Positions 8,557-31,481 of a stretch of DNA of 49,593 bases are shown piece after piece. The number at the start of each line of letters is the position of its first letter. Position 1 is the first letter of the stretch. Location: assembly GCA_039801885.1 (NCBI GenBank), contig JBDRVN010000004.1, positions 1 to 49,593 of the forward strand, in the 5' to 3' direction. The notes below the pieces were generated by a model. The model did not search any database. It was not told the DNA's origin and saw nothing but the letters and a program-made list of their open reading frames with translations. The DNA comes from a candidate division WOR-3 bacterium (GTDB taxonomy: Bacteria; Hydrothermota; Tepidihabitantia; Tepidihabitantales; DTDR01). The position numbers were made by a program, and so were the translations under genes.

Positions 8557-9881
8557 CTCCTAATACTCAAAAGAGTGAGTTTTTCAATCTTTTTAAGATA
8601 AAAAATTTTATGATTTTTTCCATTTCTCAATCTTTTTCTCTTTTTGGTGATAAATTAGATTATATGGCAATATTAGCAATGATTAGTTTTTTGGCACAAA
8701 AAAAAAATTTGAATGCCTCCCGAGCAATTTCTTTCCTTTCAATAATTATTACTTTACCCACTATCCTCTTTGGTCCTTTTGCAGGAGTTTTTATTGACCG
8801 ATGGGATAAAAAGAAAATTTTAATCTATTGTGATTTTTTTCGTGCTTTATTAGTTGCCTTTATTCCCTTTTTGATCCTTAATACTTTTAATTTATCTTTT
8901 GTTTATATAATTTGCTTTTTTGTATTTTTATTTGGTTTATTTTTTAACGCTACTCGTTTGTCTATTCTTCCTTATCTGGTAGCTAAAAGAAGACTTTTAG
9001 CAGCTAATTCTTTTAATAACTTATTAGGAAGAATTGCTACTCTTTTAGGTATGTTAGTTGGTGGATTTATCGTGGATTGGCAAATTTGGAAAAGAATTGG
9101 CATACCTTATAGCTGGGCAGCGGGTTTCTATATCGATTCTTTTACTTATTGGGTTTCGGTTTTGGCTTTGCTTTATCTTTTTACCAAAATAAAAATAAGA
9201 AAAATTTATATAGAAAATATGAATTTTCAGAAATCGAAAAATTTCTTTTATTTAATTTTATTTAATTTAAAATTGATGATTAATGATTTTAAAAATACTT
9301 CAAAATTTATTCTTAAAAATCAAAAAGTACAAATAGTAATGATTTCGATTTTTTTATTTGTAATTTTAGGAGCGGGAGCCTTGGTACTTTATGTGCCAAT
9401 TATTCAAGAGCGCGAAGGTCTTAAATTAGGAACTTCCGGTGTTGGGTTTTTAGGCACAATTGGTTCAATAGGTTTGATTTTGAGTTCATTAACCTATGGA
9501 ATTTGGGGACATAAATTTAAAAGAAAATTAGTATTAATTGTAAGTTTTTTTCTTTTCGGAATTTTAACGATGATTTTATCTTTTATTAAAATCGTACCTT
9601 TAGTAATTCTTTTGATTTTTATATGCGGTTTTTTGCTTTCACCAATCTTTGTAATTCAGGATACTATTTTACAAGAAAGCGTACCGGAGGAATTGCGGGG
9701 GAAAATTTTTTCTTTAAAAGAGTGGTTTTTGCATTTATTTTTTGGTATTTTTGCTTTTATTATTGGTCAGCTAACTTACTTTTTCCCAAGAACAAAAATT
9801 CTGTCTTTTATTGGGATTTTTGTTACATTTTCCTCATTGATTATTTTTCTTATTTATCGCCGTCAGGAAGAATTAACTTAA
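8550..9881 (+). CDS. MFS transporter
   Basis: About 12 hydrophobic segments, GVFIDRWDKKK motif A, LQESVPEELRGK; overlaps the GT4 stop. Confidence 0.85.
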   Translation: MVTPNTQKSEFFNLFKIKNFMIFSISQSFSLFGDKLDYMAILAMISFLAQKKNLNASRAISFLSIIITLPTILFGPFAGVFIDRWDKKKILIYCDFFRALLVAFIPFLILNTFNLSFVYIICFFVFLFGLFFNATRLSILPYLVAKRRLLAANSFNNLLGRIATLLGMLVGGFIVDWQIWKRIGIPYSWAAGFYIDSFTYWVSVLALLYLFTKIKIRKIYIENMNFQKSKNFFYLILFNLKLMINDFKNTSKFILKNQKVQIVMISIFLFVILGAGALVLYVPIIQEREGLKLGTSGVGFLGTIGSIGLILSSLTYGIWGHKFKRKLVLIVSFFLFGILTMILSFIKIVPLVILLIFICGFLLSPIFVIQDTILQESVPEELRGKIFSLKEWFLHLFFGIFAFIIGQLTYFFPRTKILSFIGIFVTFSSLIIFLIYRRQEELT

Positions 9882-10473
9882 TTTTAATTTTTTTATCAGA
9901 AGGGAAAAATTTGGTATTAAGAAGATATTTTTGGGAGAAAGATTTATTAATAAATTTTATTTCTTCTTCCAAAAAAGGACATTTTTTACAGTCGGCATAG
10001 CTTTCCTTTAAAATAAGATTATCCCAATAAGGGTCGCCAAGAAAAATCAAATTTAAAAAGTTAACAGGATTCTCTTTTGGGAAAATTAAACTCTCCACCG
10101 GTACTTCTTTTTCATTAACTATTATCAATACAGAAATTTTCCTTGTTAATTTTTTATAAACATATAAACTTTCCCATAAGACCCAATCTAAAAAAGCCAA
10201 AGCATTTTGTAAAGCAGTAAGCGGGATATTACTTAAGATACTTGCCTTTTCGTTTAACCATTCGTAACCTTTTAAATTTATTAAAAATTGGACTTCTCCT
10301 TTATTTTTATTTACTTCTCCAGGAAATATTATTATTTTATTTATACTGTCAACTATTAGATTTTTCTCTTCTAAATGAAAAAACGGCTTTTTACTCTTTT
10401 TAGTAAAAAGAAAAGTCAATAAGAAAAGAAAAACGAAAACTAAAAGAGAAATTATCCGAAAATTGATTTTCAT
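9850..10473 (-). CDS. Hypothetical membrane-anchored protein (possibly YdjY-like)
   Basis: N-terminal TM, IIIFPGEVNK, C-terminal CKKCP; coupled to the upstream sugar transferase. Confidence 0.4.
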   Translation of the reverse strand: MKINFRIISLLVFVFLFLLTFLFTKKSKKPFFHLEEKNLIVDSINKIIIFPGEVNKNKGEVQFLINLKGYEWLNEKASILSNIPLTALQNALAFLDWVLWESLYVYKKLTRKISVLIIVNEKEVPVESLIFPKENPVNFLNLIFLGDPYWDNLILKESYADCKKCPFLEEEIKFINKSFSQKYLLNTKFFPSDKKIKIKLILPDGDK

Positions 10474-11771
10474 TAGTAAGGATTTTCGTATATAAGTATT
10501 GCCTTAAAGGTTAACAACAAAATTGAAAAATCTAACCAGAGGGACCAATTTTTTACATAATATTCGTCAAGCAGCAATCTTTCTTTTAATGTTAAATTAC
10601 CCCTGCCAGAAATTTGCCACAATCCGGTTAACCCTGGTTTTACTTTTGATATAATTGGCAAGTAATTTTCAATTAACTCTTTTTCTTCTAAAAGATAAGG
10701 TCGAGGACCAACCAAAGCCATCTCTCCTTTTAATACATTTATCAATTGAGGTAATTCATCTAAGCTAAACCTTCTTAAAAACTTGCCAAAGGGGGTGACT
10801 AATTGTTCACTTTTGGGAATTTTTAAATTTTTTTGCCATTCGTTAAAATATTCCTCTTTAAAAATTTCTTGATACTTCTGGGCTTCTATTTTCATTGTAC
10901 GAAATTTATAAATAGTAAAAACCTTGCCTTTTAACCCAATTCTTTTTTGTTTATAGAAAATCGGACCCGGCGAAGTTAATTTTATTAAAAAAGAAAATAA
11001 CAAAAATAAAGGTAAAGAAATTATAAAAATAATTAAAGATAAAAAATATTCTAAGGCAGTTTTAAGAAAAAGGTTGAAAGGTTTTAGAAGATTATATTTG
11101 GGCTTCAAGAACAAATAACGACCTATTTTTTCAATTTCAACATTTTGCGTTTGTAAAAGATTTAAATCAGCGACAATAAAAATTTCCGAAAAAGTTGATA
11201 TTAATTTTTCTTTAAAATATTTATCAGTGACAATTAAAATATCGGGCTGTTCTTTATTTCCAACTAATTGATAACCTAAGTATTGTTGACGGACAATTTC
11301 TTCTTTTAACTCATCGATTGATTCTTTTTCGCCGATGATTTTTATTTTTTTAATAAACAAGCCGATTTTTATCAAAACCAATTTAGTTAACCAACGAGCG
11401 AGAGGAAGTAAAATTAAAGAAAAAATAAAAGCTAACAAAATAACAATTCGGGAGAAACTATAAATTTGAGTAAGGTAAGCAACAAAAATAATAATTATTG
11501 TTCCTAACAAAAGTCCTTTCCATAATTTTTGAAGTTCATCGGCAAAACTAAATCTTTTGCTGTACAAATCATTAAAGAAAAATATTAAAAGATAGATAAA
11601 CAAAAAATAAAAACGATAATAAAAAACATTGAAAGACAAGGGAAAAGATAATTGAGTAAAAATCTTAGGAAGAACAACAGCTCTTATTATGTAACTCAAA
11701 AGATAAGAAAAGGATAAACTCAAAAAATCAGAAAGAGAAATAATAATACCTGTAAGCAAATTTTTTTTCAC
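10473..11771 (-). CDS. Polyprenyl-phosphate sugar phosphotransferase (WbaP/WcaJ family)
   Basis: N-terminal TM helices, FTIYKFRTM, RRFSLDELPQLINVLKGEMALVGPRP, KPGLTGLWQISGR; GTG start. Confidence 0.92.
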   Translation of the reverse strand: MKKNLLTGIIISLSDFLSLSFSYLLSYIIRAVVLPKIFTQLSFPLSFNVFYYRFYFLFIYLLIFFFNDLYSKRFSFADELQKLWKGLLLGTIIIIFVAYLTQIYSFSRIVILLAFIFSLILLPLARWLTKLVLIKIGLFIKKIKIIGEKESIDELKEEIVRQQYLGYQLVGNKEQPDILIVTDKYFKEKLISTFSEIFIVADLNLLQTQNVEIEKIGRYLFLKPKYNLLKPFNLFLKTALEYFLSLIIFIISLPLFLLFSFLIKLTSPGPIFYKQKRIGLKGKVFTIYKFRTMKIEAQKYQEIFKEEYFNEWQKNLKIPKSEQLVTPFGKFLRRFSLDELPQLINVLKGEMALVGPRPYLLEEKELIENYLPIISKVKPGLTGLWQISGRGNLTLKERLLLDEYYVKNWSLWLDFSILLLTFKAILIYENPY

Positions 11772-27873: not shown

Positions 27874-27968
27874 GAAAAACCTATTATTAGGTTATAATAT
27901 TATCTAAAATTTTTATACCAATTAGGATATCCACAGGGTTTATCAGTAATACACTTTCTAAGAGAAAC

Positions 27969-28112
27969 GATAATAATATTATTAGAATGAATAACAATAC
28001 CTTTATTAAAATTAACGATAATACCCTTATTAGAATTAATGATAATACCCTTATGTAAACGAATAACAAGAGGCTTATTAAAGGAAGCAATAAGAGAGTT
28101 ATTAAGACGAGT
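27969..28112. repeat. Degenerate 24-nt tandem repeat, 6 units
   Basis: Units start at 27969, 27993, 28017, 28041, 28065 and 28089; best-conserved unit GATAATACCCTTATTAGAATTAAT. Confidence 0.8.
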
Positions 28113-28119
28113 AAAATAC

Positions 28120-28147
28120 GATAGGGGGAGACGTTCCCTATCTTTTT
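28120..28147 (+). terminator. Intrinsic terminator
   Basis: GATAGGG/CCCTATC stem (28120-28126/28136-28142), extendable by two G-U pairs, then TTTTT. Confidence 0.75.
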
Positions 28148-28210
28148 GTTGAATCTAAAATAACTATTTGAAATATAAAGACTTATAAGAAATTTCTACC
28201 TTAAAAATTT

Positions 28211-28225
28211 TTGCATGCTATGCAA
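28211..28225. promoter_or_regulatory. Palindromic operator candidate TTGCAT-N3-ATGCAA
   Basis: Perfect 6+6 inverted repeat ending 1 nt before the -35 box of the HTH gene. Confidence 0.5.
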
Positions 28226-28226
28226 C

Positions 28227-28254
28227 TTGAAATAAAATCTTTAATGGTTATAAT
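28227..28254 (+). promoter_or_regulatory. Leaderless-type promoter of the XRE-HTH gene
   Basis: TTGAAA 28227-28232, 16 nt, TATAAT 28249-28254, 6 nt, ATG 28261. Confidence 0.65.
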
Positions 28255-28260
28255 AAGGTG

Positions 28261-29133
28261 ATGTTAAGAAAATTTATAGGAAAGTTATTAAAAGAAATGA
28301 GGAAAGAAAGGGGATATAGTTTAAAAGAGATTGCCAAATATTGTAGAAAAAGTGTAAGTGATTTATCAAGATTAGAAAAGGGCAAGATTAAAAACCCTTC
28401 CATATTTTTAATTTTAAATTATTTAAAGACAATAAATATTCATTATGGAGAATTTTTCAGCAAAATCCAAGGATATGAAATAGAAAACTTATTAAAAATG
28501 AAAGAGAAAGCGAAAATAGTGAATGGGATGGGATTGGTAAGAAAAGAGATTCGTTATAGTTTAGGATTAAAGTTTCAGAAAAAACCTTTTATTAATTACC
28601 CCGAAGAGTTAGAATGGAAGATAAAAAATTATTTGCTTCCTTTTGGTTACGAACCTTCAATAGTTAGAAAATATATCAAGTTTAGTGAAAAGGTATTTTA
28701 TGGTCTTTTAGATGGAAAAGATGAAAATTATTTTCAAGAGATAAATAAAAAGGCAGAAGAAGAAAATTTAGATAAACTTCTTTTAGCAAAAATAGCAAAA
28801 ATTACTTACGAGGCTTACAAAAGGGCATTAAAAAGAATAAATCAAGTAAAACCAATAACTGATAAAAAGATGAAAAGAATGGCTGAAGGCTATTTAAAAT
28901 ATTGGAGTAAGTGGATAAGATTAGAATATTTGATAAAAAAATATTTATGTGAAAAAGGGGTGCCCTTGCCTTTACATTTTTATTATCTAAACAAGGCAAA
29001 GAAATATCACAAACTATTAAAGAAAAACAGATTAGAGAAGATAAAAGAAATAGATGAAAAGGCAATAAAAGAAGGTTTAGAAAAAGAGATATTAGAGAAA
29101 ATAAAAGAGATTATAAAGGAAAGAGATAAATAA
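28261..29133 (+). CDS. XRE-family HTH protein with a duplicated C-terminal helical domain
   Basis: LKEMRKERGYSLKEIAKYCRKSVSDLSRLEKG XRE HTH; internal repeat aa 118-183 / 222-286 (track numbering from GTG 28258). Confidence 0.8.
   Translation: MLRKFIGKLLKEMRKERGYSLKEIAKYCRKSVSDLSRLEKGKIKNPSIFLILNYLKTINIHYGEFFSKIQGYEIENLLKMKEKAKIVNGMGLVRKEIRYSLGLKFQKKPFINYPEELEWKIKNYLLPFGYEPSIVRKYIKFSEKVFYGLLDGKDENYFQEINKKAEEENLDKLLLAKIAKITYEAYKRALKRINQVKPITDKKMKRMAEGYLKYWSKWIRLEYLIKKYLCEKGVPLPLHFYYLNKAKKYHKLLKKNRLEKIKEIDEKAIKEGLEKEILEKIKEIIKERDK
29015..29117 (+). repeat. Direct repeat copy 1 (3' end of the HTH gene)
   Basis: 103 bp; 93/103 identical to 30659-30761 by manual ungapped alignment. Confidence 0.9.
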
Positions 29134-29176: not shown

Positions 29177-30610
29177 ATGAAGAAAATTTTAGAATCGGTA
29201 ATTTTATTATTAATTTTAGTATCTTTATTTTCAGTGGCTTTTGCTCAATGGGAGCCGGATGTACGACTAACATGGAATGATAGTTCTTCGACCACAAGTT
29301 TTAATAATGTCCGTAACATTGCTGCTGGATCCAATGGAACTTTACATGTAGTGTGGGTGGATTGTCGAACAGGAGTTAGTCAAATCTATTATAAACGTTC
29401 AACCGATCGAGGAACGACTTGGTCTCCCGATACCAATCTGACCGATGCCAGTGGATTGAAAGCAGATCCTAACCTCGCAGTAGTTGGTGAAACGCTCCAT
29501 CTTGTCTGGGAGGACCACCGTTGGGGTTATCCCGGAGCAATTATGTATCGAAAGTCAACAGATAATGGCATAACTTGGTTACCAGAACAATGTATCAATG
29601 CCAATAACTGGAACTCTCGTAATCCTGCGGTTGCTGCCGAGGGAAGTATAGTTCATGTTGCTTGGGCTAGTGATTCAGTAGGTAGAGAAATCTATTACAT
29701 TCGCTCAACCGACAATGGCGTAACCTGGACTGACCGCCGTCGGTTGACATTTGATATGCAGGAATCTTGGTATCCCTCAATTGCCGCTTCGGGTCAGTTT
29801 GTGCATCTTGCTTGGCGAGACTGGCGTGATCACAGTTTTGAAATATATTATCTCCGTTCTACTGACCGAGGCGCAACATGGGATAGCATACCCATACGCA
29901 TATCTGGTGATCTAACAACTGGTTCTTATAATCCCAGTTTATGTGTTTCAGATTCATACGTGCATATTGTATGGTTTGACACTCGTCACACTCCTTTTGA
30001 ATTGTACTATCGCCATTCCTCAAATAACGGAAGAACTTGGGATATGCCCGAAATGCGACTTACCGAAGACTCAAGTGGCTCTTACAATCCGACAATCTGT
30101 GCTGATGGTCCGAATATTCATGTAGTCTGGGAAGCGTTACTTGGCACATCTGACATCTATCATAAAATGTCCACCAACTATGGAATAAGTTGGGGACCAG
30201 AGACCCGACTTACTAATGACCAGTTTTACTCGGTTTTCCCATCTGCGGCATTACTTGATTCCGGTATCCATGTTGTCTGGACTGATTTCCGAGATAATGA
30301 ATACGGCGAAATCTACTACAAAAGAAATCTGAGAGGTAATCAGGTAGCGATTGCTAAGTCTTCCGAACCAATGTTTAATTATCCACACTTATCCGCCACC
30401 ATTGTCGGTGGTGTTCTATTTTTACCAAGGATATCAAACGTCAAGGAGAATACTTCTTGTTTTCTAATTAATATCACTGGCCAAAAAGTTAAAGAACTTT
30501 TACCTGGTCCAAACGATATACGACAATTAACTTCAGGAATCTATTTCATCTTTCAGCAGAATAGAAAAGGTAATTGGCAGTTGGAAAAGAAAATAGTCAT
30601 TCAGCACTAA
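29177..30610 (+). CDS. Secreted BNR/Asp-box repeat (sialidase-like propeller) protein with T9SS-like C-terminal domain
   Basis: Signal peptide ending AFA-Q; six SxDxGxTW-type boxes (STDRGTTW, STDNGITW, STDNGVTW, STDRGATW, SSNNGRTW, STNYGISW); tail NITGQKVKEL...SGIYF. Confidence 0.8.
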   Translation: MKKILESVILLLILVSLFSVAFAQWEPDVRLTWNDSSSTTSFNNVRNIAAGSNGTLHVVWVDCRTGVSQIYYKRSTDRGTTWSPDTNLTDASGLKADPNLAVVGETLHLVWEDHRWGYPGAIMYRKSTDNGITWLPEQCINANNWNSRNPAVAAEGSIVHVAWASDSVGREIYYIRSTDNGVTWTDRRRLTFDMQESWYPSIAASGQFVHLAWRDWRDHSFEIYYLRSTDRGATWDSIPIRISGDLTTGSYNPSLCVSDSYVHIVWFDTRHTPFELYYRHSSNNGRTWDMPEMRLTEDSSGSYNPTICADGPNIHVVWEALLGTSDIYHKMSTNYGISWGPETRLTNDQFYSVFPSAALLDSGIHVVWTDFRDNEYGEIYYKRNLRGNQVAIAKSSEPMFNYPHLSATIVGGVLFLPRISNVKENTSCFLINITGQKVKELLPGPNDIRQLTSGIYFIFQQNRKGNWQLEKKIVIQH

Positions 30611-30658
30611 CCAAATATTTTAAGGACATACGAATTTATAAACAAAATAGATATTATT

Positions 30659-30761
30659 TATTAAAGAAAAACAGATTAGAGAAGATAAAGGAGACAGATG
30701 AAAAGGCAATAAAAGAAGGCTTAAAGAAAGAGATATTAGACGGAATAAAAGGGATTATAAA
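30659..30761 (+). repeat. Direct repeat copy 2: orphan 3' fragment of the HTH gene family
   Basis: Encodes LLKKNRLEKIKETDEKAIKEGLKKEILDGIKGII, matching the C-terminus of the HTH protein; no 5' part. Confidence 0.85.
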
Positions 30762-30777
30762 AGATGCGACAAAAAAT

Positions 30778-31481
30778 TTATTTAATTAACTCCTTTAATT
30801 TATCAAAATAAGGATAATTTAATTCTTGGAGAAGAAAAAGAAAATACTCAATATTTTCTCCTCTTTCCTTTGCTTTTTTAATCTTTTCTGCAAGCAATTC
30901 CGGTTCTAAGATATTTAATAATTCATCAATTTTCTGATAACCTATTTCTTTTAAAGCCACCAATAATGAATACCTGCCTATTTTCTAAATTTTTTATAAT
31001 TTCACAAACCTCTTCTCTTTCAACAATATAACCTTTCTCAAAATCAATCCATAAAGGACCTTGCCAACGAAAGAAATGAGGCTCATTATATTTTTCGTCA
31101 CCCCTTTTAAGATATTTTTCTATTTTTATTAATCCCAATCTTTTTAATTTTGAAGCAATAAATTCCTTTTCCATAATGGATGCTCTCTTTTTTAAATCCA
31201 TAATAATAAAAAATAAAAATGCCATTAATATTATTAAAATAATGCTATATATCCAATTTGAAAAAAATTTCCCAATTTCTATCCTCCAAAAAGATAGTAT
31301 AAACATTATTATACTTACTATCATACCTATTATACCTACAACAATAGTCCAGTAGGTACTTTTTTCTATTTTTTTTCTTATAAGATAGGTAATTTCCTAA
31401 GACTATCAAAAGGACGATAAGGAAAAATATAGAAATACCTGTAGGTATTAGATTAATAATAAAAACTATTAAATTACCCAT
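30778..31481 (-). pseudogene. Frameshifted, internally deleted membrane-anchored protein gene, probable P-loop/STAND NTPase remnant
   Basis: Three overlapping minus-strand frames (31245-31484, 30926-31324, 30778-30963). An A8 run (31369-31376) breaks a TM-encoding frame. IVEREEV..IIKNLENRQVFIIGG stops where a Walker A would begin. Confidence 0.6.

Follow-up and report, generated by a model that had tools for sequence, protein, structure and literature searches.

Adnaviria, a realm of filamentous archaeal viruses, is defined as a whole by one hallmark, its major capsid protein (MCP), whose domain was so far known from these viruses only. The MCPs compared here were those of SIRV2 (3J9X), SSRV1 (6WQ0), AFV1 (ORF132 and ORF140; 5W7G, 3FBL, and 3FBZ), and SIFV (6D5F), together with the Pfam families PF12193, PF21660, and PF25647. 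In these proteins a basic arm precedes a four-helix bundle, the subunits pair as homodimers or heterodimers into capsomers that bring double-stranded DNA into A-form and form a helical virion, and the gene lies in the linear double-stranded DNA genome of an archaeal virus. The fold has been described as absent from other viruses, and the realm as having no connection to viruses of bacteria (PMC12282232; PMC10848233). We analyzed a gene of a candidate division WOR-3 bacterium at 28261..29133 on the plus strand of contig JBDRVN010000004.1 (positions 1 to 49,593, the whole stretch studied, hereafter the window). Its product carries a Cro/C1-type helix-turn-helix (HTH) domain followed by two tandem domains whose homology to the Adnaviria MCP is established at the in silico level. 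A full-text literature search returned no report of a cellular or bacterial capsid homologue or of an HTH fusion of this kind, an overlooked report being possible; to our knowledge, no cellular homologue of the Adnaviria capsid protein has been reported.

The protein resembles the Adnaviria MCPs in the order of a basic arm and a four-helix bundle (predicted here), in the register of the alignment, in the common motifs E..V..L...G(V/I)......Y..FA and GL(D/N)..(I/V)L..I, and in the occurrence of the domain in pairs, here as a tandem pair in one chain. Unlike them, it is encoded on a bacterial chromosome, is fused to an HTH, has a shortened arm before its first domain, and is not accompanied by virion genes. 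With XRE/Cro-C1 regulators (SinR, ClgR, DdrO, and the C-proteins of restriction-modification systems) it shares the HTH_3 domain, a short palindrome at its own promoter, and probable autoregulation, whereas its C-terminal part bears no relation to the helical hook of SinR/SinI, the C-terminal domain of DdrO, or other known XRE partners. RRNPP regulators such as PlcR and ComR also consist of an HTH followed by approximately 200 aa of helices. An RRNPP-type regulator was nevertheless rejected, as Foldseek gave template modelling (TM) scores of 0.21–0.26 with a root-mean-square deviation (rmsd) above 20 Å, no tetratricopeptide repeat family of Pfam matched, and no peptide gene lay nearby.

Domain structure and homology to Adnaviria capsid proteins

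The coding sequence comprises 290 aa and a stop codon, and the ATG at 28261 is the start common to the orthologues (MLRKF...). An earlier note, made from the letters of this DNA alone, had described an XRE-HTH joined to a duplicated domain in the open reading frame (ORF) at 28261–29133. Pfam and the repeat tests below agreed with it; only its residue numbers, counted from the GTG at 28258, were 1 too high. The protein is a bona fide XRE-family HTH protein. HTH_3 (PF01381) matched aa 10–65 (28288..28455, plus strand) with an E-value of 2.2e-9 and 37.7 bits against the curated cut-off of 23. The PDB sequence search with the window protein returned HTH relatives only (SinR, DdrO, and ClgR), and the HTH aligned in Foldseek with ClgR, C.BclI, and SinR at a TM score to the target of approximately 0.8. 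No curated Pfam match was found for aa 95–290 in the remaining 225 residues after the HTH, and NCBIfam and PHROGs contained no match to the C-terminal part. A Foldseek search of PDB and BFVD with the full-length model likewise returned HTH matches only. As far as these searches show, the partner domain of this XRE protein was previously undescribed.

The C-terminal part consists of two repeats, at about aa 115–194 and 195–290, and the clear internal duplication seen by the earlier note is real. Smith-Waterman alignment of aa 96–195 with aa 196–290 scored 75, compared with 35.3 ± 6.6 for shuffled sequences, none of which reached 75 in 2000 trials. The duplication was also visible at the DNA level (28706–28811 with 29015–29120, and 28609–28634 with 28921–28946; spacing 309–312 nt). 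Hidden Markov models (HMMs) of repeat 1 and repeat 2 cross-matched in most family members (1e-3 to 1e-9), and hhalign joined the two repeats with a probability of 97.6% and an E-value of 3e-12 (27 sequences each).

AlphaFold2, run with the family alignment, yielded a mean predicted local distance difference test (pLDDT) score of 80.5 for the whole protein and 88.5 for the C-terminal part alone, which was modelled as two units of four helices each. Capsid-like domain 1, delimited by AlphaFold2 and hhalign (aa 115–194; 28603..28842, plus strand), has predicted helices at aa 115–128, 132–150, 155–167, and 172–194. Capsid-like domain 2 with its basic arm, delimited by HMM and hhalign (aa 195–290; 28843..29130, plus strand), has predicted helices at aa 201–231, 236–254, 258–270, and 275–289; the arm begins near aa 180, within the last helix of domain 1. 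Ahead of domain 1 lies a basic segment (aa 86–110; 28516..28590, plus strand), recognized from pLDDT, alignment, and charge, which holds the family-invariant R98 and was predicted as disordered or with low confidence (pLDDT below 50 at aa 86–92 and 94–110). This segment is possibly a shortened counterpart of the N-terminal DNA-binding arm of the capsid protein.

The homology to the MCP became apparent in profile searches, which for PDB covered 177,635 sequences. When a profile of the C-terminal regions of the nine nearest relatives served as the query, the two best PDB matches were both AFV1 ORF132 (3fbl and 5w7g_B), at an E-value of only 0.25; the alignment to ORF132 residues 52–110 was gapless over 59 columns. 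With a repeat-2 profile of 24 HTH-fused proteins, the best match was AFV1 ORF140 (E 0.007, 88 columns). The C-terminal profile was also searched against 1.84 billion representative proteins, and 101 proteins were found at E ≤0.001. About 45 of these had the HTH-fused layout, and about 55 were short proteins (111–148 aa) that matched repeat 2. A profile built from 36 of the short proteins, the stand-alone family, gave significant and nearly full-length matches to solved Adnaviria capsid proteins (of rudiviruses and lipothrixviruses) in PDB: the rudivirus capsid protein 6wq0_A (E 1.6e-8), SIRV2 3j9x_A (9.1e-8), AFV1 ORF140 5w7g_A (3e-5), SIFV 6d5f_a (6e-5), AFV1 ORF132 5w7g_B (1e-3), and SIRV-YNP 3f2e (2e-3). 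PF12193 was matched by 19 of the 36 (best 4.6e-12).

This stand-alone family bridges the window protein and the viral proteins. Its HMM, at positions 7–114 of 123, matched aa 180–284 of the window protein with an E-value of 3.7e-13, the arm before domain 2 being aligned from position 7 onwards of this profile of stand-alone and viral proteins. Domain 1 has a short arm for which disorder is predicted. In hhalign, the family was joined to repeat 2 at 99.5% (E 2e-22) and to repeat 1 at 97.2% (E 4e-11). Against a virus-only alignment the values were 97.9% (E 5.2e-13) and 96.3% (E 2e-9), respectively, and against the four solved capsid sequences of PDB only they were 90.3% (E 1.5e-6) and 77.3% (E 2e-5). 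Reversed and column-shuffled query alignments stayed at or below 1%. Profile–profile comparison of each repeat found the capsid similarity that the earlier note had suggested. The gapless L..G..Y..K ... L..I/V pattern on which that note relied recurred in the same register in the profile alignments, and the SIRV2 stretch that it gave agrees with the chain sequence of 3j9x_A.

Structural comparison pointed in the same direction. Foldseek returned 47 PDB matches for the C-terminal model, and all but the capsid ones were long designed or unrelated helical proteins with an rmsd of 10–28 Å. The only compact, low-rmsd matches were the capsid proteins of SIRV2, AFV1, and SIRV-YNP, namely 3j9x (probability 0.90, TM score to the target 0.59, rmsd 4.1 Å), 3fbl (0.77, 0.64, and 3.3 Å), 5w7g_B (0.44, 0.53, and 3.9 Å), and 3f2e (0.44, 0.69, and 2.1 Å), at E-values of 2–10. 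The model did not behave as a merely generic helical bundle, and a SIRV2-type fold of the repeats is strongly suggested by these comparisons. Although homologous to the capsid protein, the window protein does not belong to the functional class "capsid protein": its gene is not viral, and its scores lie below the Pfam thresholds.

Distribution and genomic context of the family

The named HTH-fused members were all from metagenome-assembled genomes (MAGs) labelled "candidate division WOR-3". The scan of genome contigs, made with the HTH-fused alignment, was limited by a single peptide pattern; beyond WOR-3 the taxonomic range was poorly sampled, and further searching mostly returned the viral clade around P0067. 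Three layouts were observed: an HTH with two capsid-like domains, an HTH with a single one (P0034, P0041, and others), and stand-alone proteins of approximately 120 aa. In cells, the capsid-protein domain therefore forms a family, nearly all of whose members known to date are from WOR-3.

In the window, in L001 (99% identical), and in L029 (87%), the gene has pyrK-pyrD-pyrF-pyrE, with a protein sorted by the type IX secretion system (T9SS), upstream and the S10 ribosomal operon downstream. Orthologues with 62% identity (L002 and L003) have SMC-FtsY-EF-P downstream, and a 1.56-Mb contig from a more distant lineage has the gene between gatCAB and parB-parA. Housekeeping synteny was kept across several MAGs at 62–99% protein identity. 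Neither an integrase, a terminase, nor another viral or mobile-element gene was found near the gene, and IMG/VR contained no relative of the window protein. These observations do not bear out the idea of the earlier note that the gene is the signature of a mobile element; the gene is chromosomal, is vertically inherited, and has a cellular rather than a viral context. PADLOC models matched the HTH region only (HTH_VI, RmrA, and capH) and not the rest of the protein, and membership in a defence system was rejected for want of PADLOC support beyond the HTH. Paralogues do occur: one MAG (CALHQW01) carries two diverged HTH-fused paralogues, L017 and L019, whose proteins are 73% and 40% identical to the window protein. 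A repeat-HMM scan of the window found no second paralogue apart from a 3' relic.

The short proteins were a mixture in which genuine viral capsid proteins are interleaved with chromosomal single genes. P0067/P0121 and P0108 are located on virus-like contigs that carry a Holliday-junction resolvase, a STIV B116-like gene, a glycosyltransferase, giant ORFs, and a second capsid-like gene. Because both proteins score above the Pfam threshold, they are, judged by sequence, real adnavirus-type capsid proteins. The chromosomal stand-alone proteins P0110/P0057, P0061, P0073/P0148, P0081, and P0169 are single genes surrounded by bacterial housekeeping genes, on contigs as long as 1.8 Mb. Their source labels are WOR-3 where named, except for P0169, which is labelled Latescibacteria. 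Neighbours of the WOR-3 genes include groESL, alaS, and an aquaporin gene, and P0110/P0057 adjoin groES-groEL and an extracytoplasmic function (ECF) sigma factor. The WOR-3 proteins of approximately 120 aa (P0110, P0061, P0073/P0148, and P0081), which are unnamed in databases, are the closest cellular relatives of domain 2 (repeat-2 HMM 1e-11 to 1e-13). They come from the same phylum as the window protein and are chromosomal too, but lack the HTH, have a single domain, and possess a full-length arm. One of them, P0073, matched PF12193 over its full length with an E-value of 3.7e-5, at 24.3 bits against a cut-off of 25.2.

The gene neighbours of the stand-alone WOR-3 proteins vary and include an ECF sigma factor, LexA/UmuD-DinB operons, and others. 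In L004–L007 (L004:10001-10357), the stand-alone gene lies 9 nt upstream of the ECF sigma factor and a 256-aa protein, an arrangement that is divergent from groES-groEL and kept in four assemblies. On two unrelated contigs, stand-alone genes are located beside SOS-type operons with LexA or a UmuD-like peptidase S24 and a Y-family polymerase (L015:7001-7423 with 9503-11325; L035:4443-7378; L036:699-2384); in L035 and L036 the stand-alone gene begins 52 nt after dinB. Such a neighbourhood hints that these genes may be linked with DNA damage or protection.

Virus-like contigs of 54 and 104 kb (L010, L011, and L012) carry two capsid-like genes each (L010:8001-8369 and 9602-10888), one for a 122-aa protein and the other for the C-terminus of a 428-aa protein (stand-alone-family HMM, E 7e-8). 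They also carry an Hjc resolvase, a STIV B116-like gene, a thymidylate synthase, and a TnpB/Cas12f-like gene. [quoted passage not shown] Relatives of the L010 capsid protein have been deposited in MAGs labelled Cloacimonetes, Thermotoga, and Thermoprotei, probably through mis-binning.

Candidate operator, charge, and explanations of the protein

A strong sigma-70-like promoter, TTGAAA-16-TATAAT (28227..28254, plus strand), agrees with the consensus at 11 of 12 positions. Its -10 box is separated from the ATG by 6 nt, box and spacing are kept in L029, L017, and L002, and the mRNA may be leaderless. The -35 box is abutted by a perfect 6-3-6 palindrome, TTGCATgctATGCAA (28211..28225, plus strand), which is the candidate operator of the HTH. 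A palindrome search found no second exact copy of TTGCATgctATGCAA and no second good site in the 49.6-kb window. All eight orthologous or paralogous loci with enough upstream sequence (8/8) had a perfect 6-3-6 palindrome at the aligned position. Among its six distinct versions, 36/36 half-site positions were complementary, which 0/500 shuffles matched, and three of the six half-site positions varied on both sides, always in Watson-Crick fashion. The type of half-site tracks the recognition helix: S-D/E-L occurs with (T/G)GCAT and S-Y-L/I with TCCT. The paralogues L017 and L019 of one MAG differ in both half-sites (TGGCAT and TTTCCT) and recognition helices, as expected of insulated duplicate regulators. 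The co-variation of half-sites with the recognition helix points to autoregulation, and we infer that the HTH binds the palindrome as a pair.

Several other elements were observed upstream. A second conserved block, ATTTGAAATATAAAGACTTATAAGAAATTTC at 28165–28200, contains the 8-bp palindrome CTTATAAG and could serve as another site bound by a protein; in more distant loci, its place is taken by ATTTAAAT. A terminator-like hairpin at 28120–28142 is kept in the orthologous loci L017, L002, and L019. Between the upstream T9SS gene and the hairpin lies a degenerate 24-nt tandem repeat of approximately 4–7 copies (27948–28115), which creates a spurious repetitive minus-strand ORF at 27887–28090. 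This repeat was rejected as a binding array, as it is absent from L002.

The window protein has a net charge of +32 (+0.11 per residue, compared with a median of 0.034 for the ORFs of the window), and only ribosomal proteins in the window are equally basic. The high charge is kept across the family (+23 to +40). Residues 62–114, with the invariant R98, have a net charge of +6, and the arm at aa 180–217, with the invariant K191, K197, and K203, has one of +9. So strongly positive a charge speaks for the capsid-like part touching DNA directly, and the arms may contact DNA in the manner of capsid protein arms.

As the best explanation of the whole, we favour, with some confidence, an autoregulating protein composed of an HTH and two SIRV2-fold, capsid-homologous domains that pair with each other. 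Two HTH domains would recognize the 6-3-6 palindrome abutting their own -35 box, and the protein would repress or tune its own transcription. The two capsid-like modules, each behind a K/R-rich arm, would pair like two viral capsomer subunits. The paired modules would then either bind the flanking DNA non-specifically, wrapping or coating it outwards from the operator, or only supply an interface for oligomerization. The single-chain pseudo-dimer and the A-form DNA coating proposed by the earlier note are plausible ideas.

Several findings weigh against this explanation. The window protein scored below every Pfam capsid model (PF12193, PF21660, and PF25647) and matched none of them, and one family member reached an E-value of only 0.065. 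The Foldseek E-values of the C-terminal model were all non-significant. The AlphaFold2 models were built on 8–9 sequences with low predicted TM scores (0.35 and 0.48), so that they do not fix the relative position of the two modules. A single-chain pseudo-dimer has one HTH, yet the operator is palindromic and needs two HTH domains, which implies at least two chains on the DNA or a different pairing. Furthermore, the correlation between operator and recognition helix derives from few independent lineages, and the lysine richness is partly a feature of a genome with approximately 30% G+C (value of the window).

A farther-reaching version is that WOR-3 possesses a cellular family of SIRV2-fold DNA-binding proteins, stand-alone or directed by an HTH, that wrap or coat chromosomal DNA in the Adnaviria style, possibly in A-form and possibly for protection (LexA-DinB operons adjoin some of the genes), with the family being the long-missing cellular ancestor of the capsid protein or an ancient capture of it between archaea and bacteria. 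We regard this version as tentative and on balance rather doubtful. The α/β-type small acid-soluble spore proteins (SASPs) and nucleoid-associated proteins, which are small basic DNA coaters, offer a functional analogy only and have no sequence or fold relationship to the protein. SASPs shift DNA towards A-form.

An ordinary XRE autorepressor, whose capsid-like modules only dimerize, oligomerize, or sense a signal and never touch DNA, is a real possibility, though not the one that we expect. In that case the homology to capsid proteins would be a curiosity of evolution and would not matter for the mechanism. HTH_3 and a promoter-proximal palindrome co-varying with the recognition helix would fit a classical repressor, members with an HTH and one domain (P0034 and P0041) would dimerize like rudiviral capsid proteins, and bundle 1 is slightly acidic (net -2). 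Such a repressor does not sit well with the net charge of +32 or with basic arms (+6 and +9) carrying invariant lysines before each bundle, as in viruses. In addition, the stand-alone relatives retain the basic N-terminal arm although they have no HTH, and their R..Y/W..K motif aligns with the DNA-wrapping arm of SIRV2. Homology itself would be denied if the resemblance were one of chance or composition among lysine-rich four-helix bundles, which we consider highly improbable. The Foldseek E-values of 2–10, the direct PDB profile matches at 0.25 and 0.007, and a probability of 1% for repeat 1 against rudivirus-only sequences in hhalign would agree with chance. They are outweighed by the recurrence of the same few capsid entries at the top of independent searches among 177,635 PDB sequences, by the reversed and shuffled controls at or below 1%, by the bridging family that joins both sides at 97–99.5%, and by the full-length match of the chromosomal P0073 to PF12193 (E 3.7e-5).

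Two further explanations accept the homology and place it in a viral setting. The gene could be a remnant or component of an integrated WOR-3 virus or mobile element, a capsid gene having been taken up together with a repressor domain. Outside WOR-3, the nearest relatives are indeed genuine capsid genes of viruses, located on virus-like contigs (P0121 and P0108), and XRE repressors are common in prophages; however, the housekeeping synteny in several MAGs, the absence of a viral gene nearby and of an IMG/VR relative, and the occurrence of the stand-alone WOR-3 copies as single genes among groESL, alaS, and the aquaporin gene make this very unlikely. The protein could also act as a decoy against viruses: as a cellular relative of capsid proteins, it would poison the assembly of a hypothetical filamentous WOR-3 virus, in analogy to capsid-derived restriction factors. 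No Adnaviria-like virus of bacteria is known (PMC10848233; PMC12282232), PADLOC had no match outside the HTH, the neighbourhood is one of housekeeping genes rather than a defence island, and a decoy would leave the HTH fusion and the autoregulatory operator unexplained. Its sole support was the capsid homology together with several diverged paralogues in one MAG (L017 and L019), and we give it hardly any credence.

The WOR-3 family is a candidate for the first cellular, bacterial relatives of the Adnaviria hallmark protein. A bacterial chromosomal family makes the origin of the capsid protein testable, as a phylogeny can polarize transfer from cell to virus or from virus to cell. As a tractable and soluble counterpart of the capsomer in a single chain, the protein also lends itself to studying the effect of the fold on DNA outside the virion. 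Among bacterial regulators, the capsid-like domain would add a new partner of XRE proteins, and the protein may represent a new class of nucleoid protein.

Relic 3' end and BNR-repeat gene downstream

A relic copy of the 3' end of the gene, equivalent to aa 245–290, was identified at 30574..30789 on the plus strand from DNA identity and the repeat-2 HMM. The segment 30659–30764 is 90% identical in DNA to 29015–29120, and the repeat-2 HMM matched the relic with an E-value of 3.6e-14. The relic ends in ...KDATKNLFN, as do the more distant orthologues. Between the 3' end of the regulator gene and the relic lies a BNR-repeat gene with a T9SS sorting tail (29177–30610). L029 (87%) has the same layout of regulator, BNR gene, and relic (L029:6881-8477). 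In L001 (99%), the BNR gene is missing and the regulator ends with the C-terminus of the relic, ...DATKKLFN (L001:6690-6960). From its sequence, the L001 layout appears to have arisen when recombination between the 106-nt repeats caused a deletion, which would have altered the last residues of the regulator.

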